60,552 nt of DNA from a virus (IMGVR_UViG_3300043414_000845:1-60552); one strand, 5' to 3'. Shown: positions 26,296 to 53,855, counted from the stretch's first letter. Program-made: numbers and translations. The notes: generated by a model from the letters alone, not told the origin.

Positions 26296-26784
26296 TCAAT
26301 GTACTGTCGCGAACTGAAAATGCTGGCAGTCGGGGCGGTCATGCCAGCGCCCACCCCAGGTCGCCCCCGCCCCTTCGAAAATGCCGACGACGGCCATCGG
26401 GATCATGCCCGCAGACCAGGGTGTGCCGAGCGGGTTGCCGGTCGGGTTCAAGTCGATGGCGCAGCCGTAGCTGTGCGTCGAGAGCTTTGTGCTGCCTCGC
26501 ATGAGGCGGAAGTTGTACGCGCCACCGTAGAGGTGCAAGCCGTGGAGCTCGCGCTGCTGGACGTCGTAGAGCTGGCCGATGGCCTTCAGGCAGTCCTGCA
26601 TCGCGTTGGCGCAGTTCTTGTGCGCCACGATCTTGCTGACCTTGGTGGTCGGCTCCCAGGCCAGGACCATGTCGTAGGGCGGCACGAACCGGACAAGGTT
26701 GGCGACTTCCCAGGAGCGGTCGGCCATGCCATCACCGTTGATGTCCGGGTTGCCGTAGAAGAACTTGCAGTTCGCTTGGGTCAT
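26296..26784 (-). CDS. Endolysin, M15 metallopeptidase
   Basis: GAYNFR...STHSYGCAIDLNP...WGGRW...DCQHFQ. Confidence 0.9.
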   Translation of the reverse strand: MTQANCKFFYGNPDINGDGMADRSWEVANLVRFVPPYDMVLAWEPTTKVSKIVAHKNCANAMQDCLKAIGQLYDVQQRELHGLHLYGGAYNFRLMRGSTKLSTHSYGCAIDLNPTGNPLGTPWSAGMIPMAVVGIFEGAGATWGGRWHDRPDCQHFQFATVH

Positions 26785-27386
26785 TTGAAAGCTCCGAACA
26801 GCAGGATGAGCAGACTCCAGTGATACGCACCAGCCAGGAGTTCGGATGTCTGCGACGAGCTGCCGATGCGCCAGCCTGCCCAGTACACGACGCCCAGGAG
26901 AGCGCCGGAGGCGGCATACAGCCCCGCCTGGAGCGGGTGGAACCAGAACAGCGGCAGGATCGCCAGGGAGCAGCGCAGGAGGCCGATGAAGCCCATGCCG
27001 GTCATGTGGAAGGACCAGCGCCTCCAGGTGTCCCAGCTCGCGTCAGGCAGCCCGCCAAAGAGCTTGGGGAGCCACCAGGACGTGGTGATCTCGGTCTGGG
27101 TCCCCTGGATGATGTCGCTGGCTGGAACCCGCCCAGGGAACATCATGTGCCCCCCGTGGCCCAGGAGCGCGTAGGAGGCGAACGCGGTGACCACCAGGAC
27201 CGGCAGCAGCCAGAGCGGCCCACCGGCCAGCTCGTAGGTCAGCGCCCCGGTCGGGATCGCCCAGACCGCCCGCATGGTGTGCGTGCCGGTGTACCAGTGC
27301 GGACCAAGCAGGTCCCGCCACCAGCCACCACGCAACCGGTTCAGGATCGCGCCGATGAACGCGCCAATGATGAGCTTGACGAGCAT
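26781..27386 (-). CDS. Multi-TM membrane protein
   Basis: NRLRGG motif, several TM helices, SELLAG C-terminus. Confidence 0.7.
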   Translation of the reverse strand: MLVKLIIGAFIGAILNRLRGGWWRDLLGPHWYTGTHTMRAVWAIPTGALTYELAGGPLWLLPVLVVTAFASYALLGHGGHMMFPGRVPASDIIQGTQTEITTSWWLPKLFGGLPDASWDTWRRWSFHMTGMGFIGLLRCSLAILPLFWFHPLQAGLYAASGALLGVVYWAGWRIGSSSQTSELLAGAYHWSLLILLFGAFK

Positions 27387-28885
27387 CAGGCGTTGACCTT
27401 GTCCGTCCAGCCCCAGACCCATATGCCATTGGTGGCACCACCCGCTGCGGTCGACGTGTAATAGAGCGAGGTACTTTCGAGCTGAAATTCCGTCAGCGTC
27501 TGGGTTTCCGTGAACGTACCCGCGCCCATCGAAGTGCCGCCGAAAAATCTCGTTTGGCTCGCATCGACCCATCCACCGTCATTGCTGGGGAAAATCATGA
27601 GCCTTTGGTTATTAAAACCACCCTCCCACACGACGATGGAGATCGCTGAGGCTGTTGAAGGGATGTTCTTTGCGTTGCCAGAGCCAGTGGACCCTTGCAC
27701 CTGAATGGCTGTCAGGGTGGCTCCGACGTTGGCGATAGTCAGTCGCGTCATGAAGGTTGTGGTCGAGCCAGCCGTGACAACGTACTGGACCTTCCTGCCG
27801 ATCTGCTTCGTACGCAGGAACGTCGACGCGCCGCCCGTGATCATGCAGCCGATGCGATACTTGAACCCGCCGCTGTACCCGGTGGGGAGCGTCGGAGCTG
27901 TTGCACTCAGGGATGCAAGGGAGCCCACGCCCGTGCCATCCGGCTTGGCGATGATGAAGATGTGATACTCGGACGTCGCCGCGATGGAGCCGGTGTCGAG
28001 CTTGTTGAGGGCACCGTTCGACGAGCAGTCGCAGGTGAAGGAGCCAGCCAGGGACGCGATGCCTCGGCCATTCGAGTCCACGATCACGACCTGGTCATAG
28101 GTGATCGAGATGTTCGTGGTCGCGCCACCATTGGTGATGACCAGCCCGGTTGCACCAGGCAAGGCTACGAACAGCGATATGGTTGATGGCGTGAAGCCGA
28201 CGAGCTCCAGAATCCAGGCCGAGTCCACCGCGGAGTAGGTGCAGCGGTACGTGTTGCCGGTCACAATCTCGCCGCCGACGCAGGCCGTCAGGCCAGAGGT
28301 CGTGGCCACCTTGACCGTGATCGCACCGACCCCGCCATAGTCCAGCGTGGTGCCGGATGAGTTGGAGGATGTTGCCTTGAAGTAGCAGACGGTTCCGCCC
28401 GCCAGGGAGAACGGTGTCACGGTCGGCGTGACGATGATGGCGTTTGCCGTGCCGCTGGTCGTGCCGTAGCTGAACCCCTGCTGGATCGCAGAGGCTGTGT
28501 CCTGGGGGGTCATGGCCCTGGCTGTGTCCGTCCCGATGACGGCCTCCGTCTGCGTCGCCAGCTCCACGGTGCCAGCGACCGTCGTGCTCGCAGCCGACAC
28601 GGTTCCGGACGCTATCGCCGTCGCCGTCCAGATCGTCGAACCCGACGAGTTCTTCAGCACCGCGTCGTAGGTGACGCCTGACGCCAGGTAGATCACCGGG
28701 AACATGCCAGAGCCGTCCGCGACGACAGGGTTCGTGTTCGGAACCGTCTGCGCGGTGTCGGAGTACGTGTTCGACGGGGTCGTCGTACCCGTCAGGTAGA
28801 AGTAGAGCAGCCCGCCAGGATACGGGTTCCCGGAGCCGTCGACCGGCTGCAAGAAGGGCTGCGGAACTCTGTTGGTGGCTGGCAT
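27386..28885 (-). CDS. Tail fibre/spike
   Basis: N-terminal head-binding-type domain (GNPYPGGLLYFYLTGTTTPSNTYSD...NTNPVVADGSG), AGTVELATQTE, G/S/T-rich. Confidence 0.85.
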   Translation of the reverse strand: MPATNRVPQPFLQPVDGSGNPYPGGLLYFYLTGTTTPSNTYSDTAQTVPNTNPVVADGSGMFPVIYLASGVTYDAVLKNSSGSTIWTATAIASGTVSAASTTVAGTVELATQTEAVIGTDTARAMTPQDTASAIQQGFSYGTTSGTANAIIVTPTVTPFSLAGGTVCYFKATSSNSSGTTLDYGGVGAITVKVATTSGLTACVGGEIVTGNTYRCTYSAVDSAWILELVGFTPSTISLFVALPGATGLVITNGGATTNISITYDQVVIVDSNGRGIASLAGSFTCDCSSNGALNKLDTGSIAATSEYHIFIIAKPDGTGVGSLASLSATAPTLPTGYSGGFKYRIGCMITGGASTFLRTKQIGRKVQYVVTAGSTTTFMTRLTIANVGATLTAIQVQGSTGSGNAKNIPSTASAISIVVWEGGFNNQRLMIFPSNDGGWVDASQTRFFGGTSMGAGTFTETQTLTEFQLESTSLYYTSTAAGGATNGIWVWGWTDKVNA

Positions 28886-28887
28886 GG

Positions 28888-31800
28888 CTAGTCCCCTAAA
28901 TCGACGCCAAGGTCTCGATAATAATCGAGCAGCGGGTCTTCCCGCTCCCTGGTGGTGGTGATGCGTGGGATAGGCTTCGGCGCAGGCAGTCGTGGCCGGA
29001 TCGGTGGCTGTTCGGATTTTTGCTCTGCGCGCTTCCGCAGGCCGGTCAACTTCTTGACCCCCCGTGGCAGTGCCTGGCGCAAGATAGCACCAAGATGCTG
29101 AATCGAGCTATCGCTGAGTCCGTCGTCGCCGCCCAGCATTCCGAGCCAGCTCACCTCCATGCTTTCGCCACTCACCGTGCCGTTGATGCGGCCGATGGGC
29201 TTGCCGTGCAGCATGATGGCGAACTGCTTCAGGTGCGGTGCCCCGCGGCGCTGCTCCAGCCAGTCCTTCTTGTAGACCCGCTCCAGGTCTCCCTGCTGGT
29301 CCGAGATGGTGGCCTGCTCGCCAGCGTCGACCTTGCCGTTGGCAAAGCCGTCACGAAGGGTGTCGAGGAACCGGCCGCCCTGGGGCGCGTCCTCGTACTT
29401 CGTGTCGAACTTGTCACCCATCTGGTACAGGATGTGGTTCATGCGCTCGCTGAACGAACCGGTGTTGTTGACCGATTTGATCTGGTTCGGGTGGAAGGCG
29501 ATGTAATGCACGACGTCGTCGTCGATGCGGGGGCGCTCTGCGCTACCACCGTCGAACTGAGCAGGCCAGCGGTCCTTTACTTCCGTATCGATGACGCCGT
29601 CGTAGCCCATCTTCTCGAACAGGCTCCGCATCACTTCCGGGATCGGGTTGTCAGCCCGAAACTTCGGAAGCTCTGTCATTACGGCATGCAACAACTTCGG
29701 GTCGTCCATCAGTTGCCAGACAAAGTAGCCCGCCCCAATCGTTGTCCCGTGTGGCACCGTGTTCATGATTTTGGAAAGCCATTCAGTGAACTTCTGCCTC
29801 ACCACCTTGTTCTTGTAGAGGTCACCATCGACTCCCTTCAGAACGCTCGGCAGGTGGTCCAGCATCGCGTGCATTGTTGACTTCGGGATGCTGGTTTCGT
29901 TTGGCCCTCCAAGGTAGAGGGGCTTTTGGATGCTGAGGTAGAACGAATAGATAGCCCCCTCATGCGCCGTGGTTGCCTGCTTCCACTCCTTCACTTTCTG
30001 CTCCAGCTCCTTCGTGGTCAATGTGGGAGCTTCCGACGCGGCGTGATCCCACGCCCTCTGATCGAAGTCCGGGGCGTCGTAGCCGGTGTAGTTAAACGAG
30101 GCGTCGTCACGGCTATTGGTGAAGTAGAACCTGTTGCCAAAGAAGTTCCCGTTGTTGCCAGGCTTGAACTCGGTGATGTCGTGGTTCGACCCGTGGAACA
30201 CCGTGATCGGATGACCGACGCTGTCGATGGCGTGGCTCTTCTTCCACCAGGACTTGAACTCCGGCGTGTTGACCTTCGGGTCCGCCGGGGCCAGCTCGCC
30301 CTTTTTGTATTTATCCTTCACCGGCACATACGGCAGCTCCTTCTGGTACATGACCCGCTTGTCGGTCGTGCTCCATTCGCCGCCGTTGTTGACGCCCTTG
30401 ATCTGCCCCTGGTCGAACACGCGGTATTCGACGGCATCCTTGGCAGCGCTCCACGCGAGATGGATTGCTCCGTCATAGCCCTTCGACGCCGCCAGCTTCA
30501 CAAACCCAGGGTCGTCCAGGAGGATGTTGGCCTGAATGTAAAGGTCGTTGATGGCGGCCGGGTTCTCGTCCAGGAGTTCCCTCACAGAATCGTAGTCGTC
30601 GAACTTCTCGTGCCAATTGTCCGTGTCCATGATGGCGCTCTCCAGGACGTCGCCGTCCTCGATCACCTTGAGCAACTCGCGCTTGCCCAACTTCCGAACC
30701 AATGGGGCGAGCTCGGTAAACGGATCATCCTTGTCTTCGAAGATCGGGTGCTCGATCCTGGCGTAGTACGTGCCAACCCTTGGGGCCTCCGCAACGTCTC
30801 TGCGGATGTTTGGCTCTAGGGCATACATGCTCGCCATGTCCGGGTCCTCGACGAGCGTGATGGACGGCAGCCTGGTCTGGATGTCCTCGCCGTTAGGCTC
30901 CCCGTGCTCACCGCGGTACAGCGCGAGCGGCTTGCCCTTGCCATCGACAACCCTGGAAATGCCGAACCACTTCTTGAAGTTATGGCTCTCCGGGTCACCT
31001 GCCGCCTGGTAGAGGATGCGCTTGTCGCCCCTGTTCCAGGTGCCGCTGTTGTGCGTCGACTTCACCTGCCCCTGCTCGAACGGCCGGTAGGTGTCATGAA
31101 CCGGAACGCCAGTGCTGCCCTCCTCCAGCTTGTCCCTGCCAGGCTCGTAGTGGTCAGCGCCGCCTTCGAAGACGTCCTTGTGGATCACGCCGTCGTAGCC
31201 AAGCTGCTTCAGCATGTCGACGAACATGGGTGAGTCCGCGAAGCTGTAGGCGTCCAGCGAACTGTCGTGCAGGGCGTTCTCCAGCTCCTCGTACTTGCCG
31301 TCTTCGCCGAGCTGCTCGATCAGATCGGCCAGCTCGTCAAAGCTGCGGACCTGCATGCCGTCGCTGTCCCCCGCGCGAATGTCGTGCTCGGCACCAGTGC
31401 GGTAAGCCGTGGTGTCCATGTCCCGAAGAGCTTCCGCGATGTCGATGTATCCGACCTTGCCATCGTGCAGGCCTGTAGGCTCGTTCCAGTCGTAGTTCAG
31501 GAGCTCGACGACGTCGCCCAGCGATGGGTGTTCGCCGACGGCGCGCAGGTCCAGGGGCTTCTTGATTGACAGGTAGGTGGGCAGCACGTTCGATCCAGCG
31601 CCGTACTGCTTGCCTGGCAACTGCCTGGAGTAGACGGACGCCACATCCGGATCAGGCGTGAAGGACGGCGTCGCCCGGCCACTGGTGAGGGTAAACCCAT
31701 CCTCCCTGGCATTGCGACGCTGGCCGCGGAACAGCTTGAGCGGGCGGCCGTCAGGAGTTGTTGCAACACTGCCTTCAAAGAAGCGTTTGAACGCAGGTGT

Positions 31801-34800
31801 ATCGGTCGTCGCCCTGGCTACGCGGTCAGCGTAGTCCGTCTCGCCGTCCGCGATCTGGTAGCGCAGCATCTTGTTGGCAGGCTTCACAACCACACCAGCC
31901 TTGTCCGTGATCTCCGTCTGGTAGCCCTGGCGAGCCTCCGGCGTGACCTTGATGCCGTGGATTTCGTGGAAGGCTTTGGCGTTCCGCTCAACCTTCAGCT
32001 CCGACCACGATGGCGTCGACCCCTCCGCGATGTCGCTCTCGTTCTGAAGTCGCTTGGCTTCGGCGTATGCCTCGGCCGCTTCGCGCGTGCTGAACGATTC
32101 GACGTTTTCTCGGAGTCCTGATTGTTCCCAACGGTGCTGACCAGTGACCGCCCACGCCTCTGCTGGGTTCTTCACGACCCGCAGCGTCCCCCACTTCAGG
32201 CCCATCTTCGCCAGGAAGGCCTTCGAGTCCTTCTGAACGGTCTTGTCGTAGAAGTTCATCATGCCCTGGTTATTGATCGCGAGGCCGCCATCTTCGATGG
32301 TGCCAGACGCGATGTACTTATCTGTCGGATCGAACGCGGAGTTGTGCCCGTGCCGTTGCTGGACGATCTGCTCCGCCCCAGCCTTGCCAAGGTTGTTCTT
32401 GATGTCGAGCTCCGTCAGCCCTTCCAGGACGTGCCGCTGCCGGTGCTGCCGGTCTTTCTGCATGTCGATCTCAAGGTCGAACTTGCCGTCGCGGCGCTCC
32501 TTCCAGACCAGCTTCTTCACCGCGGTCCGCAGGGCCCCTGGATAGCGCTCGACCTGCTGCGCGCCCGTGGGCATGCCGACCCAGTCGTAGCCGTTCACAA
32601 TCGCCTCATGCAGGATGTACTTGAGGGCGACCATCGGCCACGAGTCTTTGTGGGGAAGGCTGTCTGGCTGAGGATCGGCTGACATGAGCTTCGACCAGGC
32701 TTCATCCGACTTGTTGATTCCGCGGCCAATGCGAAGCCTTGCGCGCGACAATAATTCGGCCTCAACAAGCGCGTTAGAGGCGTTCGGTACAATCCCCCGG
32801 CTTGGCAGCTTCTTGAGCTGCTCCTTCAGGTATCTCACCGCCCCTTGCATGTGACTTGGGATTTTGTCGGAGTCGACGCCAAGGTATTCCGAAGTGTACT
32901 CCACGTCGTCCCACTTGGCGTAGTCGCCAAACGTCCAGTCCTCTCCCTTGCGCGGGTCCGTGTCGTACAGACGCTTCAGGTCGAGGTTCAACGAGATGGC
33001 TTCTTTCAGGGCATGTGAGAGCGCGCGTGCGTTATCCCTCACGCCCTCCTTATGCTTGTTGAGCTCTGTGGTCCCCAGGTACTTAAGCTCGCGCTCTTCT
33101 GCCCCGTACCCAGTATACCCTTGTTCGCGCGGGCCAAGCACATCGGCCAGAATCTTGGCTGCCTGGCGAGCTGCCTGGTGCGGGTCGGACTGGTCTTCCT
33201 CGAACACGATGGCCTTGCCACCGTCTTCCGCTTCAAAGTCCTGCGCGCGGAAATGCTGCGCGATGTTGCGATGGTCATCCGATCCGAAGTGCGATGGCAG
33301 GCCTCTGCTGACCTGGTCCCGGATTCGCTCTGCCGGAGAGGACGGGTCTGGCTGGTAAATCTGCACAGCGTTCTCACCAGGAGGCGCGAGCAGCAGCTTG
33401 TCTGGCAGCGTCGGGATCGTCACCAGGTACTCGCGCTTGTAGGTGCCACCACCCTTGAGGTTGTAGCTGCCGTACCGGGTGCTATCCACTGAGGTCGGGA
33501 TACGTGGTCGGTTGTTGTTGTTGTTCCGACGGCGATTGTTACCGTACCAGTGGTGCCGCACGCGATCCGCCAGGTCGTTATGATCCAGCTCTGACCCAGC
33601 TTCATCGACCAATGCGTCAACGGCCTGTGACACCCACCAGTCGTGGTCATCGTTCAGCTCCTCTTCTATTTCGTCGTGAGCCTGCTCGGACCATTCTTCA
33701 TACCAATCGTTGTTCAGGCGCTCAGCGGCACGCTCGCCAGAGCGCTCCGTTTCAAAGTGGTCGCCGGATTCCTCCCAGTCGTCGTTCTTCAGGTCGTAGA
33801 CCCGGTAGCCTTCCTGCGGCTCCTCCTCGGTGTAGAAGACGCGGGACTCGTCGCGGATGTGTTGAAGCGCCTTCTTGATGGCCTCTTCTTCACTGTCGCC
33901 AACGATAGTTTCCTTGACCTCGTGGTTGTGAAAATCCGCGTCATGATCGTGATTGTCAGGGTCGGAGAGCTGGTACTCCGGCTGGTCATCGTTTGACAGC
34001 TCGTCGGTGTCGATCTCTTCTCCGCCAATATCGACGGGCTTGTTCTTCCTGTTCGTGGCATGCTGGTGAATGTCGACCTCCCACTTCGAAGGCCTTCCCA
34101 TCAGGCGGGTCAGCAACCCTCCGACCTCACGCGGCTTGCCGTGGAAGTAGACCGTGGGCTTCATATACCGGTTGTTGCTAACGTCCCAGTCAGCGTCGCT
34201 CTCGCTTTCATGGATGTCGTGGTAGTCGACGGTTTCCCCACGACCGTCGCGCTCCACGACCCGATAGGCTGGGTTGTCGTACTCGCGGTGCTCGTACCGG
34301 GTGCGCGGGTTGTCGTCGCCGCCATCGTAGTGATCCAAGCGGTCGCTAATTTCGTCTGAGGCGAAGTTGTCCCGGATGTACTCCCTGACGTCGTCCATAT
34401 CGTCGAAGCGAGATTCGTCCATGTCAACCGTCTCGAACGGATCGCCTGGAAAGTCCGGGTCCGCGGGCGGCGCGGCTGGCACCGGCTTCTTCTTCTCTTC
34501 CTGGACCGTCAATGCCCGCGACAGCGGCTTCGTGCCGTCGTCCTTGATAATGACGTGCAGCTCGGTGCGGTTGTCCTCGCGCCGGTTGACGACGTGGTCC
34601 TTGGTCAGCGGCTTGTCTTTGAACTCGGTGAACAGATGCTCCAGGCCGGTGTCGCGCAGCTCCTCCGGCTTCACACCCTGCTTGATGAGCTCCGCTCGCC
34701 ACTGGGCCCCGTGGCCCCTGGTGAGCTTGGTCGACCCAAGGGCGATGTCCAGGGCGCTGTCGAAGACGTTGTCGAGCTTGGACTCCGGCGTGACCTGGTA

Positions 34801-37800
34801 GTGCACCTTGCCGGAAGCGTCCGTCGCCAGGCCGTAGTCCGTGGTCGCCGTTGCCCCGAGCTTCCTCAGCTTCCGCTTGGCGCGGGCACCGATGTGACCG
34901 GCGTCCAGCATGGCCATGACGTCCTCGCCCTTGACCTTCTTGCCCAGGACGCGATGCACGCCGACGCGGATCGCCTTCAGGACTCCGTCCATGCGGTAGA
35001 GCATCTTGCGGATGATCGGCGGGTAGCCCTTGAACTTCGTCGGGCGGCCGACCCCGAGCTCCTGGACGATGGCTTCCGACATCATCACGTCGGGGCCCTT
35101 GTTCTCGTAGTAACTCAGGAACTTCTCGTGTTTTTTGAACAGCTTCTCCTTGGCGTAGCGCGTGAGGGCTTCCCACTCGTGCGGCTTGAAGATGCCAAGG
35201 CCCTTGAAGAAGTCGACGACGACGTGGCCGCCCTCGTGCCTACCCGACCCCATCGCATCCTTGTTGCGGAGCGCCACGACGACCATTTCGCCGAAGTTCA
35301 CACCACCCAGGGGGGACATGCGGCCGTCCTCGCCGCGGGTCAGCAGGCGTTCGACGAAGGCCACCTTGGCCCCTGGCGCGATGCGCTGGATTTCCTCGAT
35401 GATCGACTTCATGAGCGGGGCGTGCTTGGCCGCCTGCTCCTTCGTCAGAGAGACCTTCCGCAGGTCGTCCATGTTGCCGGTGAGCTCGCCGCCGCCCTCG
35501 GTCCGCTGGAGCCGCAGCTTCTTGTAAGCGGCTATCGCCTGGTTACGATTGAACTCGTTCTGAATAGGGTCGTCCGAGTGCTGATAGATGATGCGCTCTG
35601 CCACACCGTTTTTGTCGAGAACCGCTGAGGCGTCCTCGCGGAGGTTGGACGGAACCACCGCTGCGCTGAACTCGTCGATCCCAACTGGTCGCGTGACCTT
35701 CGCTTCAAAGTACGGCCGCGGCATAACCTTCAGGCGACTGAGCATTTCGGTCGCGCTCGCGATCTCTTCGTCCGTCGCGCGAGGAATCTTCGCCCTGATC
35801 GAGCCAGCGACGTCCCCGGTGCGCGCCGCTTCCGTGAGCGCTTCGGCGGCCCAGGCGTTCGACGGGCCACGATATGCGCCCCCGAAGACCTCACCCTTAC
35901 GCGCTGCGACCTCCTCCGGAACCTTTTCCGAAAGGCTACCGATCAGGTCGCTATAGATTTTGTTGACCTCATCGAAGTCCTTGGTGAAGGCAGACTTCGG
36001 AGCCAGCCTGTCAGAGGCCGCCCTGATCTCGTCGAGGGTTTTGAACTGCTGGGCCTGCGCCCCACGCACACGGCCAACGGAGGAAAAGTCTCCAGTGGCG
36101 CGGATGTCGTCGGTGTCGGTCATCATCCGCACCACGTTTTCCAGCGTGTGCGGCAGGTCCCCCTGGAACTTCCAACCTGGGCGAGCGCGGACGTACTCGT
36201 CCTTGAACATGGGCCGGAAGGTCCGGTCGATCCAGGCCTTGAGCCTGGGGTGCTTGGAGACCTGAGCGGCCACCTCTTTGGTCCGAGCAACCGCTGCCGC
36301 CTTGGCTTCCGGGGTTGGCTTCTTGCCCTTACCCTGCCCATGCGGCGACATGATGTTCTCATCCGCCCCGATGATCCCGTGCTCCCTGGCGAACTTCATG
36401 ATCGCAGGGTGGATGCTCCCGAAGTAGTGAGGTGATGCGTCCTTGCCGAAGTCAGACGGCACGGGCTCGCGCTCGTGGCCGGAGCGCCTGATCTCGTCGG
36501 CGAGAATCTCCTTCATCAGGGGGAGCTTGGCCATGTCGATCTTCGCCCCGGTGTACGGGTAGCGGGGCGAGTAGATGTCCGAGTCATAGACCTTGTTGTG
36601 CTGAGAGCGCTGCGGGTCGATCAGGTCGGCATGCCCAAGCAGGGAGATTTCGCCGAACCCAGGCAGTCCATGTTCTGCCTTCACGATGCCAATCGACGGG
36701 GCCGCAAGGCCACCCATGCGGTCAGCGTGGATCAGAGCATCGGCCGAGATGTTGTGCACCACAGCCAGCGTGCCAGGGCGAGCCTCCTCCTCCTCCTTGG
36801 CGATCTGGTAGCGGAACTGTTTCCCCATCTTCGGGGTGATTTCCATGCGCCACATCTGGCGCGGGGTCCTTGCGGTATGTGCCATCTCAAAGAGGGGCTT
36901 GGCGCTATCCCCGAACATCGACCTCTGTTCGTGCTGGATGGCGCGCATGAGCAGGTCGGCGTCATCCTGCGAATCCAGCCGCTCACGAAGGCTATCGAAG
37001 TATCCAGGCATGTCCCGGTTCGGGGTCTGAACCGTAAATTCGAGATCGTCTAGGAGGTGAGGGTTCCTGAAGTCGTTCCTATTGAACCAGGAGCGAAGGA
37101 GGCGCGTGTAATCGCCAGCCTTCACTTTTTGATTGAGCTTGGTGATGGCGGCCAGCATCTGGCGGCGACCTTCGCTGCCAATCGGATGGTCAATCGCCAC
37201 CTTGCGACCATTGCCAATCGCTTCAGGAACCTTGCTGGCCAGAACCTTGAGGACCTTGTTCCGGTCGTTGGTGGACAAGTAGTAGTGCATGAAGTCGACC
37301 AGGTCGGCGGATGACCCACCCCCCTGTTTCTCCATGAGGTTCATCTCCTCGTAGACGCGCATCATCGGGTCCAGGAGCTCGTACGCGAGACCGTTCTGGT
37401 CGGTCAGGACGCCCTTCACGGCATCCTTGAACTTGCCCCAGCCAGCGTCACCTACGCTGAACGGGTTGAGCGTCTGTGGCATGTTGGTCGGGTCGTGCGA
37501 CGCGGACTTGAGCTCCGGCTTGAACCCGAACGGCTTGCCGAGCTCCCTGGCCCACTCAACCTTCTTTTGGTCGTAGAGCTTCTTGTGGAACTCGCCGCCC
37601 GTCTTCAGGTCTTCACCCTCGTAGCGCAGCCATGTGTCCTGGTTGCCTTCAGGGTCCCACGTCTTCGCCTTGTCGAATATCTTCTTGGCGTGCTCTGCGC
37701 TGATGTGGTCGGCAAGGTCCTTGAACGTCGACTCCCGGTGATTGATTGGCGTGTCGCCACCAATCTTGACGGCAGTCCAGACGACCTTGTCACCGTTGGG

Positions 37801-40764
37801 GTTGCTGCGGTCGGCCGGGCGGAAGGTGATATGCTCCAGCTTATTTTCCAGGCTGTTGCGCTTGGCCTGCTGCTCGCCCGTCGTCCAGGAGATGTGGCGC
37901 AGACCTTTCGACAGCGCGACCTGGACCATGCGCTTCATCGACGTCTTGCCCCAGGAATCCAGGTGCGGGACTATCGGCGTCCGGTTGACTTCGCTCTCGA
38001 CGTCCATGCGCTTCTGGTCGAGAGCCTGCCACTCGGCCTGAAGGCGGATGACCTCGTCGTAGTCCCGCCTTGCAATCTCCTGCTCGTATGGCGAGTAGCC
38101 CATCCTGGCGGCATCGGCCGGATCGCGCTCAGCCAACTCCAGGAGGTGCTTGGCTCTGGGGGCGACCCGGTTACGCATGCTGGGCTCGGTGGGGCCGATC
38201 CCCACCAACTTTTCAACAAGGCCGCTGTAGTCGCTGAGGATGGCGTTCCAGGCTGCGTGCTTGCTCTTGAACTCATCTTGGAGGGCATCCGCTCGGTTGC
38301 GGATGGCGGTTGGCGACTCTTCGCGGAACCCTTCCGTCCGTCCCCTCTGGATGACGTCAGACTGAGCCTCGTCGTCTTGAAGGGAGGTTACTCCGTCGTC
38401 GAACTCCAGCGTGCCATAGCGGTTGTGGAACACGGAGTTCTTGTGGCCAAAGTGGTCACCGTGCGTGTCGCCGATGTTCCAGCGGCTGTCATTCCACTGC
38501 TGCGAGGCGTCCTTCCACGGCTCAACAACGTCCCGCTCGTAGTCCTTGTTGAACGCCTCTTTTTCCTCCAGCGACATCCGTGACCACAGCTCACGAGAGT
38601 CTGAACCAAGCCTCTCGCCGACATACTCCGTCAGACTCTTGAGCGACGGGCGCTCCTTGACCTGCTGGACGACTCGCTCTTCGTAGTTGCCGACCCCTGG
38701 GGAGACGAGCTCCTGGCCGGTGTATTTGTCCCACTTGGAGTAGCCGACTTCGGAGAGCGGGCCATCATGTGTAACGCCATCCGTATCCACCATCTCGATG
38801 GCGTCCGGGGGCGGTGAGGTCAGAGCTTCGTCCTTGCTGGCGAACTCACCAGTCTTCTCACCAGTCCTCTGATCGACCCACCTGAATGCCCCATCTGGGT
38901 CATTCACGTATGGGTTAGATCGGTCCTGAATCAGGACGTAGCGTTTCTCGTCGTGCCTGGCCGCCGAGTACAGGTGCTCCTTGAAGACCGGCGTGTTGCG
39001 CTTGATGAGCGCATCGATCTCGGCCCGCGACCACGCCTTCTTCGGGTCCTTCTTGAACTCAGCGGTGAGCCCCAGGTCCTTCATCTCCTCCGGCTTCACG
39101 CCCTTGTTCAGCATGATGCCATGCCAGTCCGACATGGGGGCCTTGGAGAGCTTCAGGTTGTCGAAGACCTCGCGCGACTTGAGCGGGAGCTGCTCGTTGA
39201 TGTCGCGCAGCCTGGTGTCGACCGGCTCCTCGTCCGCCTTCTGGTAGCGAACGGTTCTGCGCGGCTGCTGACCATCGTTGTGCATGCCCTGGTAGTCAGA
39301 CTCAGCCCATGATTGAGCCACTTCCGGAGATAGCTTCAAAGGGGTCGACGGCCTGGTCTTCCCGGCAGACCTCATGTCCTGGTTGACCCAGTCCGCGTCG
39401 CCGGTCTTGTCGTCCTCTTCAAGGACATGACGGTCCGTTTGGCCATCATCATAGGTGACTGTTCGCCGAACGCGGCCGTCGTCCAGGTGATCGTACCTGA
39501 CGTTGTGGTCCTCGTTCTTGCCATGCACCCGGTGTTCTTCGCCCAGGTTCACACCCTGGTCGGCGGGCTTTGCCCTTGGTTTGATGTCCGTTGGGGCAGC
39601 GCCAGCCTGTTGGCTCCGCGGATCGCTACCGTTCAGGTGGGCGTAGTCGGACGGCCGTGCCTCCTGGATGCCGTTGATGAAGTGCTCGTCGCCACCAGCC
39701 CCGCCAGGGCCGTCAGGGCCTCCAGGAAGGCTGGAGCCGGGTTGGTGGTCACCGAGCCCTAGTACAGAGCCCAGCCTCTCCGCGCCCGTCTGGAGGACGG
39801 ATGGGCCCACGTTTTCGATGTAGCGGTCCAGGAACGACTGGTCCGAGCGGTCGCCCGTGTACTCCTCATCGGCGATCATATTCCAGATGCCAACTGTCGG
39901 TTGCAGACCGAACATCTGGAAAACGCCGTTCGCGATCTCGTTGGAGAACGGGTTGGCCCCCATCAGCAATCCAGCCGCGCCCGCGAACCCCGTGTCGATC
40001 AGGGCGGCATTCCCGGCTTCCTGCCAGGCACGCTCCGGATCATCCGGATACTTCTGTAACGCAGCCTGGAACTTCGGGCCTGCGGACTGCAACCAGGTGC
40101 CAACCATTGCGCCACCAGCGCCGCCTTCAACAGCCGTGCTGAGCGCCACCGTCGGACCAGCGCCCATCATCGCTCCAGCCATCACTTGAAGAGCCATCGG
40201 TGCCATACGCATCGCACGCGACGTGATCTTCTTGGCGGTCAGGCTCCAGTCGTCGTTCGCTACGTTGATCGGGCTGTCGGTCTTGTCCAGCGGAAGTCGA
40301 CGCATGTTCGCCGGAGTGCCGTCAGCCAGCGTCGCCACGGTCTGGGCCATGTCGCCCACGCCCTTGCCGACCTGGCCTGCGGTCGCACGGAACCAGCCAG
40401 GCTCCTCCAGCGACAACGGCTCGCCCTGGGACGGCGTCACACCAGGCACGAAGGAGCGCGCGTGGAAGAGCTCGCCTTCAGGCCTCACGAAGTCCTGGGT
40501 GTTCGCGTCCTCGTGCAGCAGCTCCGGAGCCTGGTACTCTTCGTTGATCAGGTTGTTGGCGACGTTGGACTGGCCAATGGTCACCATAGGCTTGATGCGG
40601 CGATAGTCCTGGGACGCAGCCGACTGCTCGGCCCGGTTAAAGTCAAAGTTCAGCATCCAGGGGGGGGTGGTCGGCGGCTGCGCTACAGGCGGCTTCGCTA
40701 CAGGCGGCTGCGCCGGAGCCTGATCGTCGTCCGTGACCCAGTTGAACTCCCAAGGATTCGCCAT
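28888..40764 (-). CDS. Giant (3958 aa) polyvalent virion/ejection protein with several ADP-ribosyltransferase-like domains, an HExxH metallopeptidase, a duplicated QSD domain and a C-terminal GNAT-like domain
   Basis: Follows the ejection genes; three modules of the form FKxWF/W...G.P...(R/H)G...GYDG...F...Q(I/V)K (ART-PolyVal type); RHEGGH; two GVKPEE...QSD...TGxQQ...YD modules. Confidence 0.85.
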   Translation of the reverse strand: MANPWEFNWVTDDDQAPAQPPVAKPPVAQPPTTPPWMLNFDFNRAEQSAASQDYRRIKPMVTIGQSNVANNLINEEYQAPELLHEDANTQDFVRPEGELFHARSFVPGVTPSQGEPLSLEEPGWFRATAGQVGKGVGDMAQTVATLADGTPANMRRLPLDKTDSPINVANDDWSLTAKKITSRAMRMAPMALQVMAGAMMGAGPTVALSTAVEGGAGGAMVGTWLQSAGPKFQAALQKYPDDPERAWQEAGNAALIDTGFAGAAGLLMGANPFSNEIANGVFQMFGLQPTVGIWNMIADEEYTGDRSDQSFLDRYIENVGPSVLQTGAERLGSVLGLGDHQPGSSLPGGPDGPGGAGGDEHFINGIQEARPSDYAHLNGSDPRSQQAGAAPTDIKPRAKPADQGVNLGEEHRVHGKNEDHNVRYDHLDDGRVRRTVTYDDGQTDRHVLEEDDKTGDADWVNQDMRSAGKTRPSTPLKLSPEVAQSWAESDYQGMHNDGQQPRRTVRYQKADEEPVDTRLRDINEQLPLKSREVFDNLKLSKAPMSDWHGIMLNKGVKPEEMKDLGLTAEFKKDPKKAWSRAEIDALIKRNTPVFKEHLYSAARHDEKRYVLIQDRSNPYVNDPDGAFRWVDQRTGEKTGEFASKDEALTSPPPDAIEMVDTDGVTHDGPLSEVGYSKWDKYTGQELVSPGVGNYEERVVQQVKERPSLKSLTEYVGERLGSDSRELWSRMSLEEKEAFNKDYERDVVEPWKDASQQWNDSRWNIGDTHGDHFGHKNSVFHNRYGTLEFDDGVTSLQDDEAQSDVIQRGRTEGFREESPTAIRNRADALQDEFKSKHAAWNAILSDYSGLVEKLVGIGPTEPSMRNRVAPRAKHLLELAERDPADAARMGYSPYEQEIARRDYDEVIRLQAEWQALDQKRMDVESEVNRTPIVPHLDSWGKTSMKRMVQVALSKGLRHISWTTGEQQAKRNSLENKLEHITFRPADRSNPNGDKVVWTAVKIGGDTPINHRESTFKDLADHISAEHAKKIFDKAKTWDPEGNQDTWLRYEGEDLKTGGEFHKKLYDQKKVEWARELGKPFGFKPELKSASHDPTNMPQTLNPFSVGDAGWGKFKDAVKGVLTDQNGLAYELLDPMMRVYEEMNLMEKQGGGSSADLVDFMHYYLSTNDRNKVLKVLASKVPEAIGNGRKVAIDHPIGSEGRRQMLAAITKLNQKVKAGDYTRLLRSWFNRNDFRNPHLLDDLEFTVQTPNRDMPGYFDSLRERLDSQDDADLLMRAIQHEQRSMFGDSAKPLFEMAHTARTPRQMWRMEITPKMGKQFRYQIAKEEEEARPGTLAVVHNISADALIHADRMGGLAAPSIGIVKAEHGLPGFGEISLLGHADLIDPQRSQHNKVYDSDIYSPRYPYTGAKIDMAKLPLMKEILADEIRRSGHEREPVPSDFGKDASPHYFGSIHPAIMKFAREHGIIGADENIMSPHGQGKGKKPTPEAKAAAVARTKEVAAQVSKHPRLKAWIDRTFRPMFKDEYVRARPGWKFQGDLPHTLENVVRMMTDTDDIRATGDFSSVGRVRGAQAQQFKTLDEIRAASDRLAPKSAFTKDFDEVNKIYSDLIGSLSEKVPEEVAARKGEVFGGAYRGPSNAWAAEALTEAARTGDVAGSIRAKIPRATDEEIASATEMLSRLKVMPRPYFEAKVTRPVGIDEFSAAVVPSNLREDASAVLDKNGVAERIIYQHSDDPIQNEFNRNQAIAAYKKLRLQRTEGGGELTGNMDDLRKVSLTKEQAAKHAPLMKSIIEEIQRIAPGAKVAFVERLLTRGEDGRMSPLGGVNFGEMVVVALRNKDAMGSGRHEGGHVVVDFFKGLGIFKPHEWEALTRYAKEKLFKKHEKFLSYYENKGPDVMMSEAIVQELGVGRPTKFKGYPPIIRKMLYRMDGVLKAIRVGVHRVLGKKVKGEDVMAMLDAGHIGARAKRKLRKLGATATTDYGLATDASGKVHYQVTPESKLDNVFDSALDIALGSTKLTRGHGAQWRAELIKQGVKPEELRDTGLEHLFTEFKDKPLTKDHVVNRREDNRTELHVIIKDDGTKPLSRALTVQEEKKKPVPAAPPADPDFPGDPFETVDMDESRFDDMDDVREYIRDNFASDEISDRLDHYDGGDDNPRTRYEHREYDNPAYRVVERDGRGETVDYHDIHESESDADWDVSNNRYMKPTVYFHGKPREVGGLLTRLMGRPSKWEVDIHQHATNRKNKPVDIGGEEIDTDELSNDDQPEYQLSDPDNHDHDADFHNHEVKETIVGDSEEEAIKKALQHIRDESRVFYTEEEPQEGYRVYDLKNDDWEESGDHFETERSGERAAERLNNDWYEEWSEQAHDEIEEELNDDHDWWVSQAVDALVDEAGSELDHNDLADRVRHHWYGNNRRRNNNNNRPRIPTSVDSTRYGSYNLKGGGTYKREYLVTIPTLPDKLLLAPPGENAVQIYQPDPSSPAERIRDQVSRGLPSHFGSDDHRNIAQHFRAQDFEAEDGGKAIVFEEDQSDPHQAARQAAKILADVLGPREQGYTGYGAEERELKYLGTTELNKHKEGVRDNARALSHALKEAISLNLDLKRLYDTDPRKGEDWTFGDYAKWDDVEYTSEYLGVDSDKIPSHMQGAVRYLKEQLKKLPSRGIVPNASNALVEAELLSRARLRIGRGINKSDEAWSKLMSADPQPDSLPHKDSWPMVALKYILHEAIVNGYDWVGMPTGAQQVERYPGALRTAVKKLVWKERRDGKFDLEIDMQKDRQHRQRHVLEGLTELDIKNNLGKAGAEQIVQQRHGHNSAFDPTDKYIASGTIEDGGLAINNQGMMNFYDKTVQKDSKAFLAKMGLKWGTLRVVKNPAEAWAVTGQHRWEQSGLRENVESFSTREAAEAYAEAKRLQNESDIAEGSTPSWSELKVERNAKAFHEIHGIKVTPEARQGYQTEITDKAGVVVKPANKMLRYQIADGETDYADRVARATTDTPAFKRFFEGSVATTPDGRPLKLFRGQRRNAREDGFTLTSGRATPSFTPDPDVASVYSRQLPGKQYGAGSNVLPTYLSIKKPLDLRAVGEHPSLGDVVELLNYDWNEPTGLHDGKVGYIDIAEALRDMDTTAYRTGAEHDIRAGDSDGMQVRSFDELADLIEQLGEDGKYEELENALHDSSLDAYSFADSPMFVDMLKQLGYDGVIHKDVFEGGADHYEPGRDKLEEGSTGVPVHDTYRPFEQGQVKSTHNSGTWNRGDKRILYQAAGDPESHNFKKWFGISRVVDGKGKPLALYRGEHGEPNGEDIQTRLPSITLVEDPDMASMYALEPNIRRDVAEAPRVGTYYARIEHPIFEDKDDPFTELAPLVRKLGKRELLKVIEDGDVLESAIMDTDNWHEKFDDYDSVRELLDENPAAINDLYIQANILLDDPGFVKLAASKGYDGAIHLAWSAAKDAVEYRVFDQGQIKGVNNGGEWSTTDKRVMYQKELPYVPVKDKYKKGELAPADPKVNTPEFKSWWKKSHAIDSVGHPITVFHGSNHDITEFKPGNNGNFFGNRFYFTNSRDDASFNYTGYDAPDFDQRAWDHAASEAPTLTTKELEQKVKEWKQATTAHEGAIYSFYLSIQKPLYLGGPNETSIPKSTMHAMLDHLPSVLKGVDGDLYKNKVVRQKFTEWLSKIMNTVPHGTTIGAGYFVWQLMDDPKLLHAVMTELPKFRADNPIPEVMRSLFEKMGYDGVIDTEVKDRWPAQFDGGSAERPRIDDDVVHYIAFHPNQIKSVNNTGSFSERMNHILYQMGDKFDTKYEDAPQGGRFLDTLRDGFANGKVDAGEQATISDQQGDLERVYKKDWLEQRRGAPHLKQFAIMLHGKPIGRINGTVSGESMEVSWLGMLGGDDGLSDSSIQHLGAILRQALPRGVKKLTGLRKRAEQKSEQPPIRPRLPAPKPIPRITTTREREDPLLDYYRDLGVDLGD

Positions 40765-51465: not shown

Positions 51466-52884
51466 TCATTCATCAGCCTCCAGGTCAACGAATGAGGAGA
51501 TGATCGTGCGCCGGATGGGGTCAGAGACCTCCAGCTTCATCGTGCGCTGGTAGAACGAGCCCAGCGCTGACCAGCGGAGCCTGGCGTTGTACTGGCCGGT
51601 CTTGCCCATCGACGCCCACTTGACCTGGTTGAAGGTGTAGCCGCCGTCGTCTGACAGGCTCAGCACGAGCTGCGGGTCGCTGCCCTGGCCGGTTGTCAGG
51701 CCCATGCCCGCCTCGATGTCCAGCTCGAACCTTGGCATGAACACCCGGTTGCCGTTCTTGTGCATCGGTGAGCCCTGCGCCAGGCCTTTGATGGTGTTGC
51801 CGTACTCGGTGTAGTCGGTCGACGACTGGTAGCCGATGACGTTGCTCTCGTAGTCGCCGATCAGTTGCCGGTTGAAGGCCGCCACGGCGCAGTTCGCGCG
51901 CCAGCGGCCGAGCGGCTGGTTGTTCGCGTCCGTCGACTCCCGCTCGTGCCACAGCCCGGTGGTCAGGTCGAAGCACCAGGTCTTCGGCACCGACGGGAAG
52001 GTGACGTAGATGAAGTCGTGGCCTTCCCAGGTCATGGAGAAGCAGAACGCATCGGAGATGTCGCCGTAGTTGGCCCACTCCTGCTCGGTGCCATGCTTGG
52101 ACACCCGGACGGCGTTCACGCCTTCCAGGCGATAGAAGTTGCGGTCGTTTCCGATGAAGAGCAAGGCCTCACGCACCTTTGTCCAGGCCAGCGGACCGGC
52201 CATGCCGATCTGGATCGCCGCGCCAGTGTACTTCGCCCAGGGGAAGTTCTCGCCGCCAGCCAGATACCAGATTTCAATCGACCGCTGCCCCGCCACGATG
52301 AGCTGTTGCAGGTGGTTGATCGTTGCCAGCACGTAGTCGGACAGGGACTCAGCGGTGCCATAGAATAGCGGGTTGTAGATCAGCCCCTGGATGGAGTCCG
52401 AGCTGAAGAACTGGTTCGTGTTCTTGCGGTCGAACAGGAAGTAGGTTTCGTTGTGGCTGATCGTGTTCGCCGGGTAGAAGTTCACGTCGCTGATTTGCTG
52501 CCAGGTCAGGTTGTCGGAGTTGTAGATGTACCCGCCAGAGCCATCGACGACACCAACCTCGACCCCGTTGTCATCCATTGAAACCGGCCCGGTGCCAGCC
52601 AGGAGACCAGACCCGAGCAGGTCGGACGACCCATCTGAGGCCATCCTGTAGAACTGGCTGCCGGAGACCACGTAGACGTACTCGTTCAGGATGTGCATGG
52701 CACGGATCGGACCGGTGCCCACCTGCGCGAACTCGACCAGGCCTGGCGTACCGAACAGCACCACCTTCGACTTGGCGTTGACCTCATCGGGCTGGAGCTC
52801 GGAGTACAGGTTCACCAGGCGCTGCGACGACACGGGGCGCGCGCGGCTGATGTAGGTCTCCAGGGCGAAGGGTATCTGAGCCAT
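51466..52884 (-). CDS. P22 gp10-like packaged-DNA stabilisation / tail hub protein
   Basis: LVNLY, GTPGL, TWCFDLTTGLWHER, GQGSDPQLVLSLSDDGG, WSALG, SDPI motifs. Confidence 0.9.
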   Translation of the reverse strand: MAQIPFALETYISRARPVSSQRLVNLYSELQPDEVNAKSKVVLFGTPGLVEFAQVGTGPIRAMHILNEYVYVVSGSQFYRMASDGSSDLLGSGLLAGTGPVSMDDNGVEVGVVDGSGGYIYNSDNLTWQQISDVNFYPANTISHNETYFLFDRKNTNQFFSSDSIQGLIYNPLFYGTAESLSDYVLATINHLQQLIVAGQRSIEIWYLAGGENFPWAKYTGAAIQIGMAGPLAWTKVREALLFIGNDRNFYRLEGVNAVRVSKHGTEQEWANYGDISDAFCFSMTWEGHDFIYVTFPSVPKTWCFDLTTGLWHERESTDANNQPLGRWRANCAVAAFNRQLIGDYESNVIGYQSSTDYTEYGNTIKGLAQGSPMHKNGNRVFMPRFELDIEAGMGLTTGQGSDPQLVLSLSDDGGYTFNQVKWASMGKTGQYNARLRWSALGSFYQRTMKLEVSDPIRRTIISSFVDLEADE

Positions 52885-53855
52885 TAGCCCTCCAGGTCCG
52901 GTACGAAGCTGATGGCTTCAGGCTCTCGATCCCAGGAGATCAGGATTTGCGCCGTCGCCGTCGCAAGGGCCTCCAGGACCTGAATGCGGGTCGCTGGGGC
53001 CTGGTAGGCTTGGGCCAGGCGCAGGGCCAGTCCGCTCGTCAAAGCCTCCTGCCACTCCTGTGGGAAGTCCCCAGTGTCGCTGTTCAGGACGAAGTCGTAG
53101 ATCGGCCTGGAGTACGTGAACCGGATCGCCACGTCTGGGTCTTCGGCCGCGGGCCAGACGTACATCTCACCCAGGGGCAGCTTGGGGGCGTAGAAGAGCA
53201 GGTTCGGGTTGCCCACGTTCGATTTGGTTGGAAGGTCCATATACTCCTGGCGGGAGTACACGCGCATCGGGGTTTCCGTGTCGGTGCGCCCTGCTGAGCC
53301 GAACTGCACGGCTGCGGCGCGGCTGATCTTCAGCGGCCGAATGAGCTTGGACGTGTACCCGAAGAGCTTCCCGCCAACGTAGTTCGCTGCGGTCAGGGGC
53401 GTGGAGATGGTCACCACCAGGCCAGCGACGTTCGTAACCGTCGACCACTGGACCGTTTCCCCGAAGAGCTCGATGCCGATGGTGTCGCCGATGGCGAGCG
53501 TCGTGCCGTCGACCTTGGTCGTCGATGTCAAGGTGACCGTGGTGTCCGCCGCCGCGGAGGCGACCGAAGCCTCGGTCTCCAGGTACGTCCAGGCGTCCGT
53601 CGCGTTGTCGCCCGTCAAGCCGAGCTGGTAGCGGTACTGGTTGGGTTGGAGGAACAGGATGCCCTCCTCCTCGGTCCACACCCGGATGTTCTGCGCCTGC
53701 CAGGTCTTGATCATCTCGTTGAGGATCGTCAGGCCCATCGCGCGCTTGTCGGCACCGATGACCTCGTCGTCGCGGATGATGCCAGCCTTGAAGAAGGCCG
53801 TCGTCAGGATCGACAGCATCGATGGGTTTATGGTGGCGACGCCGGAGCTTGTCAT
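52884..53855 (-). CDS. P22 gp4-like head-to-tail adaptor
   Basis: AFFKAGI...LNEMIKTW...YVWP...FPQEWQEALTSGLALRLA. Confidence 0.8.
   Translation of the reverse strand: MTSSGVATINPSMLSILTTAFFKAGIIRDDEVIGADKRAMGLTILNEMIKTWQAQNIRVWTEEEGILFLQPNQYRYQLGLTGDNATDAWTYLETEASVASAAADTTVTLTSTTKVDGTTLAIGDTIGIELFGETVQWSTVTNVAGLVVTISTPLTAANYVGGKLFGYTSKLIRPLKISRAAAVQFGSAGRTDTETPMRVYSRQEYMDLPTKSNVGNPNLLFYAPKLPLGEMYVWPAAEDPDVAIRFTYSRPIYDFVLNSDTGDFPQEWQEALTSGLALRLAQAYQAPATRIQVLEALATATAQILISWDREPEAISFVPDLEG

Follow-up and report, generated by a model that had tools for sequence, protein, structure and literature searches.

The window analysed here is the whole of viral record IMGVR_UViG_3300043414_000845 (60,552 bases, estimated 93% complete). 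Its minus strand encodes a giant protein of 3958 amino acids (aa) whose C-terminal part carries three tandem ADP-ribosyltransferase (ART) modules of ART-PolyVal type, A, B and C. The three are homologous, differ from one another at the classical active-site positions, and appear to represent three old subfamilies brought together in a putative ejection protein. An initial annotation of this DNA had marked three divergent ART-like modules with different catalytic signatures; all three are in frame within the single open reading frame (ORF), where 29425-31854 (minus strand) corresponds to aa 2971-3780. The motifs it quoted are all present, and the key codons were verified singly. Module A carries LFRG, PSFT and HDTYRPF, module B LYRG, PSIT and VEYRVF, and module C VFHGS, FYFT and HYIAF.

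28888-40764, minus strand: ORF of 3958 aa, phage polyvalent or putative ejection protein, holding all three modules (ORF call, Pfam)
31009-31854, minus strand: module A, aa 2971-3252, R/S type, ART-PolyVal-like and interrupted by a ~115-aa helical insert (Pfam, AlphaFold2)
31726-31728, minus strand: R3013, strand-1 position, where the family has His (codon check, hhalign)
31663-31665, minus strand: S3034, strand-2 position, where the family has Tyr (codon check, hhalign)
31084-31095, minus strand: D3224-T3225-Y3226-R3227, strand 5; T is the Glu equivalent and R3227 is invariant (codon check)
30346-31005, minus strand: module B, aa 3254-3473, ART-PolyVal-like, R/(S,T)/E type (hhalign, AlphaFold2)
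30913-30915, minus strand: R3284, strand 1 (R31 of the module), aligned to the His (codon check)
30856-30864, minus strand: S3301-I-T3303, strand 2; T3303 aligned with the family Tyr (hhalign, codon check)
30427-30429, minus strand: E3446 in VEYRVF, strand 5 (E193 of the module), at a PARP-Glu-like position (codon check)
29425-30342, minus strand: module C, aa 3475-3780, H/Y/H type, an ART-PolyVal domain of canonical appearance that includes a long insert (Pfam)
30193-30195, minus strand: H3524, strand 1, invariant in set A4 (codon check)
30124-30126, minus strand: Y3547, strand 2, in FYFT (codon check)
29506-29508, minus strand: H3753, strand 5, in VVHYIAF, replacing the acidic residue of the family (codon check)

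Homology, active sites and predicted fold

A hidden Markov model search with Pfam matched the whole protein to ART-PolyVal (PF18760; gathering cut-off 31.2 bits) with 88.9 bits (E 6.8e-25) and to PBECR5 (E 3.3e-19). Scanned singly, modules A (33.6 bits, E 8.2e-8) and C (55.7 bits, E 1.2e-14) scored above the ART-PolyVal cut-off and module B below it. Precomputed PF18760 matches are present in 14 of the 24 stand-alone B-type proteins, and 21/22 A-type relatives match the family. Modules A and B matched no ART family other than ART-PolyVal at E<=10 in Pfam, and no Alt-like or R-S-E family; module C had an additional weak match to DUF3990 (PF13151, E 0.0081), under the cut-off of that family. Together with the ART-fold models of A and B described below, the PF18760 matches bear out the membership of the ART superfamily that had been proposed. 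The PHROG match of module B (phrog_8642) is annotated 'unknown function', and a PDB sequence search gave no meaningful match for modules B and C. The sole PDB match of the B-type profile, a designed helical spike construct aligned within the helical insert, was judged spurious.

The modules are 29-32% identical in a three-way alignment, with both elements of the scaffold noted initially, GYDG and the F...Q.K...N.G tail, invariant. Internal windowed BLAST related A to B with E 5e-15, A to C with 5e-5 and B to C with 8e-4. Profile-profile comparisons among the types (hhalign) gave E-values from 1e-21 to 5e-32, including B-type against His-type domains (probability 99.4%, E 1.3e-21) and A-type against His-type domains (E 5e-32). 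The similarity between the modules is real and far beyond chance.

The published ART-PolyVal active site consists of His on strand 1, Tyr on strand 2 and Asp on strand 5 (Iyer 2017, PMC5512222), and the family is placed in the H-Y-[EDQ] clade (Iyer 2022). This triad is complete in none of the three modules, and its His and Tyr are kept in module C only. The hhalign alignments place the Arg of A and B opposite the family His, and the Ser of A and the Thr of B opposite the Tyr. The differences between the modules at these positions, as first described, hold in the profile alignments, in the codon checks and in the alignments of relatives.

Module B appears, on its sequence, to possess a complete and conserved Arg/(Ser,Thr)/Glu set. 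R31 and E193 of the module (R3284 and E3446) are invariant in 25/25 B-type sequences at about 40% identity, and E3446 falls within a predicted strand (model residues 192-196). Profile alignments refine the strand-2 assignment: the Tyr equivalent is T3303 of PSIT, and S3301 lies two residues earlier. Relatives carry the B-type signature YRGEH...S-x-[ST]...GYDGAIH...EYRVF, and the 24 stand-alone B-type proteins are 178-320 aa long. The E-Y-x-V-F strand resembles what we take to be the PARP catalytic strand. Among the three modules, B is the best candidate for a competent, classical Glu-dependent transferase.

An exhaustive search seeded with module A returned 834 proteins at E<=1e-3 (41 at E<=1e-30). 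Residues were counted in 83 domains spanning the type-A profile, drawn from 143 new representatives from this search. Strand 1 has Arg in 78/83 domains; among these 78, Ser occupies the Tyr position in 75 and the Arg of YRPF is present in all. The Glu-equivalent position of the same 78 domains holds T in 53, A in 16, S in 5, E in 2 and V in 2. Type A would accordingly be described, from sequence, by Arg and Ser with a second invariant Arg and no conserved Glu.

The helical insert of module A (about residues 100-215; aa 3070-3185; 31210-31555, minus strand) is modelled as helix-loop-helix units with two short strands. It showed a sequence match to calmodulin, with E 0.018 for the single sequence and E 9.6e-5 against calmodulin residues 37-147 for a profile of 22 type-A domains. 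None of the 22 members matches an EF-hand Pfam family, and calmodulin is absent from the fold matches listed by Foldseek and VIA-align. The calmodulin-like reading, unsupported by Pfam, Foldseek or VIA-align, was set aside.

AlphaFold2 models were built for A and B only, on subfamily alignments. Model A had a predicted local distance difference test score (pLDDT) of 91.4 and a predicted template modelling score (pTM) of 0.89, and model B had values of 87.7 and 0.84. Model B was compared with 48,161 PDB representative chains, without the Foldseek prefilter. At Z>=5, 23 of the 28 rows listed named a PARP, tankyrase, diphtheria/exotoxin-A-type toxin, MbcT, ParT, NatT or RES protein. For model A, a VIA second look gave PARP1 or tankyrase in 49 of the 50 rows listed (Z 6.0-6.7), and the wide search agrees. 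Across both models, PARP/tankyrase/diphtheria-toxin-like matches reached Z 6.0-6.7 over 110-137 aligned residues at 7-16% identity. RES, MbcT and ParT tie with the PARPs in Z for model B, and MbcT, RES toxins and NatT (Z 5.8-6.3) gave the lowest root-mean-square deviations (rmsd; 3.5-3.9). The classical R-S-E toxins scored below the PARPs (Vis, Z 3.7; HopU1, 3.4; Scabin, 3.2; PltA, 2.9). Model A had no Foldseek match at E<=0.001, so that its fold assignment draws on VIA-align and Pfam. An ART fold is thereby predicted for both modules. The initial annotation had named predicted structures lacking this fold as a finding that would count against it; in the models of A and B, ART-fold matches predominate.

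The top structural match of module B was a chain of the cyanophage A4 pre-ejectosome (PDB 9k3a chain B; Foldseek E 5.6e-4, Z 7.7, 149 residues aligned), which also matched model A (Z 6.1, 168 residues). The alignment is scattered along some 660 positions of the chain (about 929-1606), and the chain has no detectable sequence similarity to the A- or B-type profiles. The main text of the A4 pre-ejectosome paper (PMC12002296) mentions ADP-ribosylation nowhere and does not call chain B an ART. We treat the match as a lead, not as evidence. The chain may contain an unrecognised ART-like domain.

Subfamilies among related giant proteins

We collected 57 giant homologues, the closest of which (P0002) is 74% identical across the ART region. 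IMG/VR yielded one close relative. Phage GenBank records yielded 19 distant matches only, none spanning 80% of the array, and neither search found a cultured close relative. A tblastn match to module B (36.6% identity) falls in gp225 of Tunturiibacter phage Tunturi_5 (L005:1456-5244), the gene directly upstream of the portal gene. In Pfam this protein shows a nucleoside 2-deoxyribosyltransferase-like domain and two ART-PolyVal stretches. It is annotated as a MutT/NUDIX hydrolase and has no Nudix domain at E<=0.01 in Pfam, so the deposited name looks wrong.

Using a profile seeded on module B, we took a census of the 57 giant relatives, in which 314 matches resolved into 199 domains (184 full-length, 15 partial). 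The strand-1 residue of the full-length domains is His in 160, Arg in 21, Thr in 2 and Leu in 1. Six of the 184 are of type A, with the pattern [FY]RG...PSFT...[TA]YRPF, 11 are of type B, and 27 are of type C (H/Y/H with a long insert; median length 287 aa). The longest array has 12 full-length copies (P0013). Domain orders in the relatives include ABC, AC, ABCh, BCh, hChB and hCB, and orthologues at 45-74% identity retain the three signatures. Stand-alone A-type proteins also exist, and the stand-alone A and B versions span 180-350 aa.

A FastTree phylogeny was built from 172 domains, after 36 of 208 sequences (compact domains) had been dropped for >40% gaps. It contains an A-type clade (6 leaves, support 0.905), a B-type clade (36 leaves, 0.999) and a clade uniting the two (42 leaves, 0.858). 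Under midpoint rooting the A+B clade is found at a depth of six nodes and shares a 69-leaf clade (0.87) with a 23-leaf clade (0.78) in which 22 domains are C-type. The opposite half of the tree is made up almost wholly of ordinary His-type domains. On this tree the Arg types seem to have arisen inside the His/Tyr family. As the tree has no outgroup, this nesting depends on the midpoint root and on the B-seeded profile, and insert columns favour the clustering of insert-bearing domains. Because A and B form clades and the types recur in varied combinations among relatives, the three modules are best read as members of three old, widespread subfamilies repeatedly deployed together. They had been called paralogues at first: the homology this implies is borne out by BLAST and hhalign, and a recent or local duplication is not, since the three subfamilies recur alone and together in many proteins.

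Supplements aside, which may list them, we found no mention of Arg-type members of ART-PolyVal in Iyer 2017 (PMC5512222) or Iyer 2022. The active-site variation and the possible processing code described next are undescribed in the literature found.

Architecture, boundary motifs and gene neighbourhood

Every module ends in the motif h-x-Y-Q (ILYQ, VMYQ and ILYQ, in order), and LRYQ stands directly before module A. These sites and other features of the giant ORF are as follows.

31855-31860, minus strand: Y2969-Q2970, in LRYQ, just before module A; kept in P0002 and P0003
31006-31011, minus strand: Y3252-Q3253, in ILYQ, A/B boundary
30343-30348, minus strand: Y3473-Q3474, in VMYQ, B/C boundary
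29422-29427, minus strand: Y3780-Q3781, in ILYQ, after module C
36532-36813, minus strand: PBECR5, predicted ribonuclease (RNase) domain, aa 1318-1411, with FRYQ just before it (Pfam E 3.3e-19)
35224-35238, minus strand: HEGGH, aa 1843-1847, an HExxH motif and candidate zincin site, by motif only (codon check)
28891-29421, minus strand: C-terminal 177 aa beyond module C, no family found

The giant protein contains 13 Y-Q dipeptides, where 4.8 are expected. The pattern [ILVMFQ][ILMRH]YQ occurs at 9 sites; 20,000 shuffled sequences averaged 0.30, and a count of 9 was never attained. The five pattern sites outside the array also look like domain boundaries and have acidic or polar stretches after them, one lying directly before PBECR5. 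Six of the boundary sites are conserved in P0002 and seven in P0003; other lineages have other short motifs in the equivalent place, e.g. LQR, TES and ILSQ. This pattern suggests that the h-x-Y-Q sites are candidate cleavage sites, a hypothesis in keeping with the proposal of a zincin-like peptidase that would cut polyvalent proteins into their units (Iyer 2017, PMC5512222). The RHExxH motif at aa 1843 is conserved with its flanks in P0001-P0006.

In the rest of the giant protein, every family recognised by scans with Pfam, NCBIfam and PHROGs is, apart from PBECR5, of unknown function; the matches included no peptidase, RNA polymerase, MPTase, lysozyme or GNAT family. A GNAT-like reading of the C-terminal 177 aa, made by eye, was dropped, as the last 178 aa (28891-29424) match no Pfam family at E<=1. 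Two internal repeat pairs lie in the unannotated part: aa 538-588 with 2013-2074 (39001-39153 and 34543-34728, minus strand; 32% identity, E 1.7e-5) and aa 932-969 with 2703-2740 (37858-37971 and 32545-32658, minus strand; 34%, E 5e-4). Both pairs point to a sizeable block, of unknown function, having been duplicated long ago. By eye, the translation has a Gly/Ala/Met-rich hydrophobic stretch near the N-terminus (aa ~170-290; ~39900-40260, minus strand), which could form membrane-inserting segments of the kind that ejection proteins would have. Also by eye, a low-complexity, strongly acidic Asp/Glu/His-rich stretch (aa ~2150-2420; ~33500-34300, minus strand) is followed by an Asn and Arg run; the acidic stretch has no Pfam family match.

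The gene order on the minus strand is capsid, adaptor-like gene, phrog_578 connector gene, four large ORFs, giant ORF and tail-fibre-like gene.

55786-56697, minus strand: major capsid protein gene (Phage_capsid_4, E 2.9e-11)
52884-53855, minus strand: adaptor-like gene, upstream in the same structural module (SU10_adaptor, E 6.4e-4, below the cut-off)
27386-28885, minus strand: tail-fibre-like gene, immediately downstream of the giant ORF (phrog_8443, tail fiber, E 1e-4)

The giant gene sits between the adaptor-like gene, itself a weak match, and the tail-fibre-like gene. From this order it appears to occupy the ejection-protein slot of a podovirus-like structural module, which T7-like podoviruses fill with their last internal-core or ejection protein. 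Such a position accords with an injected multi-effector protein as proposed in the literature (Iyer 2017). Downstream of the tail-fibre-like gene, a 263-aa ORF (26781-27572, minus strand) with no PHROG match overlaps the 3' end of that gene by 187 bases when read from its first ATG; its true start is probably farther downstream.

Proposed mode of action and comparison with known systems

On balance, we favour a model in which the virion carries the giant protein within its capsid core, from where it would accompany the DNA into the cell and undergo cleavage at the boundary motifs, freeing three NAD-using enzymes with different host targets. The array would then be the C-terminal effector region of a polyvalent protein, most likely an ejection protein that is housed in the capsid and delivered to the host together with the genome. 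Cutting at the Y-Q boundaries would yield separate enzymes, the protease possibly being the protein's own HExxH region or a head protease. NAD+ is the predicted ligand of every module, from which ADP-ribose would be transferred or released. Module A, with two conserved Arg and no Glu, and module C, whose acid position is taken by His, may rely on substrate assistance or on other chemistry. The modules would be active, with distinct targets; the differing active-site residues point to different substrates. The interpretation first proposed for this region is partly supported, by family, by residue differences and by the ejection-slot position, and its multi-target payload would be the predicted part.

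Several observations weigh against this model. Scanned alone, module B scores 23.5 bits against PF18760 (E 1e-4), under the cut-off. Every structural Z-score is below 8, in the 'middling' range of the tool, so the fold assignment leans on consistent match lists and on the sequence evidence. No acidic residue is conserved where type A would have the Glu (T/A/S/V in 76/78), and module C has His there. D or E occupies the strand-5 position in only 33/184 domains of the census, a degree of variation that may mean a loss of activity in some of the related copies. The Y-Q pattern was defined after the sites had been seen and three of the nine sites lie in homologous domain tails, and for these two reasons we keep the cleavage reading as a hypothesis. 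Around HEGGH, no peptidase model was found: aa 1801-2200 matched no Pfam family at E<=1 and no NCBIfam family. Packaging is read from gene order only, with the adaptor match below its cut-off. A literature search found no experimental work, biochemistry or known substrate for any ART-PolyVal member.

Some or all of the modules could instead be catalytically dead, with a structural or packing role in the internal core (pre-ejectosome) or a role in binding NAD, ADP-ribose or a target; we consider this unlikely. The best structural match of B, also seen for A, is a structural chain of the A4 pre-ejectosome from a paper whose main text is silent on ADP-ribosylation (PMC12002296), but that match lacks sequence support and its Z-scores (6.1-7.7) are tied with the PARP rows. 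Arrays of up to 12 full-length copies in related giants and the variable strand-5 position, including those of A and C, would suit an inert role. Against this, the NAD-site residues are the most conserved: His in 160/184 domains, R and E invariant in the B-type, and R and S nearly invariant in the A-type. The existence of stand-alone versions of 180-350 aa outside the giants argues against a purely architectural role.

We give somewhat less weight again to the possibility that the modules act on small molecules, either as NAD+ glycohydrolases or phosphorylases or by destroying or modifying NAD-derived immune signals, which would make the array a counter-defence kit. The H-Y-[EDQ] and R-S-E clades include NADases and NAD+ phosphorylases (Iyer 2022), but no sequence feature separates hydrolase from transferase, and the published prediction for the family is macromolecule modification (Iyer 2017, PMC5512222). 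MbcT (an NAD+ phosphorylase), RES toxins and NatT match module B at the lowest rmsd, with Z-scores tied with those of the protein-modifying PARPs. The invariant extra Arg in the Y-R-[PV]-F of A and B could bind phosphate, and in Tunturi_5 gp225, encoded beside the portal gene, two ART-PolyVal stretches are joined in one protein with a nucleoside deoxyribosyltransferase-like domain.

An origin of the inter-module similarity or of the differing signatures in chance or alignment artefact is refuted: MAFFT did misalign the strand-2 region in the first three-way alignment and the register of the module B Ser/Thr is ambiguous by two residues, but the Pfam, internal BLAST and hhalign E-values lie far beyond chance, and the same signatures occur in dozens of independent sequences and are kept by orthologues at 45-74% identity.

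The model of an injected, processed effector array can be extended to a bolder joint claim, which we advance tentatively and regard as doubtful. It holds both that the Arg/Ser lineage (A and B) independently re-invented an R-S-E-like site within the His/Tyr family, thereby bridging what counts as a top-level divide of the ART superfamily, and that the giant protein is a true polyprotein, cut at no fewer than nine h-x-Y-Q sites into separate effectors, three ARTs with three chemistries among them, which would be set free in the host at DNA entry. Those chemistries would be a Glu-dependent transferase (B), a Glu-less Arg-rich enzyme (A) and a His-His enzyme (C). If the Arg/Ser types did arise within the His/Tyr family, the split between H-Y-E and R-S-E would be less fundamental than usually held, and the Y-Q boundary motif would be the first concrete handle on the processing of such polyproteins. 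Side-by-side biochemistry is practical, as the array offers three compact, well-delimited modules (220-306 aa) with contrasting active sites and large stand-alone subfamilies. Should the modules prove inactive, the protein would simply be one more member of a catalogued family.

Modules A and B share their predicted fold with PARP, tankyrase and diphtheria-toxin-like enzymes of the H-Y-E clade, but unlike PARPs they have Arg and Ser(Thr) for His and Tyr, and helical inserts of 75-115 aa. The R-S-E clade typically has a Q/E-x-E motif. Its strand-1 Arg and strand-2 Ser-type motif are present in A and B, not in C; at its strand-5 Glu, B has a single invariant Glu and type A has T/A/S/V in all but two of 78 domains. 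A and B nest among H-type ART-PolyVal domains in the midpoint-rooted tree. T4 Alt (Alt/VIP2, R-S-E clade), a head-packaged ART injected with DNA (Iyer 2017), has an Arg/Ser/Glu-type site like that of module B, but no Alt-like Pfam family is among the module matches at E<=10.

Two podovirus systems can be compared in context. The structural match of modules A and B in cyanophage A4, 9k3a chain B, is a large ejection protein encoded between tail genes and tail fibre (A4 order gp24-gp32; PMC12002296). The N4-like virion RNA polymerase-ART fusions, such as that of Roseovarius Plymouth podovirus 1 (Iyer 2017), are likewise giant podovirus-ejected proteins with ART-PolyVal domains; unlike them, the present protein has no RNA polymerase or MPTase family among its matches, PBECR5 and the ARTs being its only recognisable domains.

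The locus is of a known kind, that of the polyvalent proteins of phages and plasmids, in which ARTs are the commonest protein-modifying domains, predicted to be co-delivered with DNA like T4 Alt (Iyer 2017, PMC5512222). Phage polyvalent proteins carry 1-12 ART copies, and the ART-PolyVal domain itself is predicted to modify macromolecules (Iyer 2017, PMC5512222). Modules A and B depart from the published H-Y-D site by Arg and Ser/Thr, and module C by its strand-5 His. In the PF18760 family, the multidomain build, the setting among late structural genes, the multiple ART copies and the PBECR RNase, the giant protein resembles this published class, whose proposed role is that of injected host-modifying effectors (Iyer 2017).

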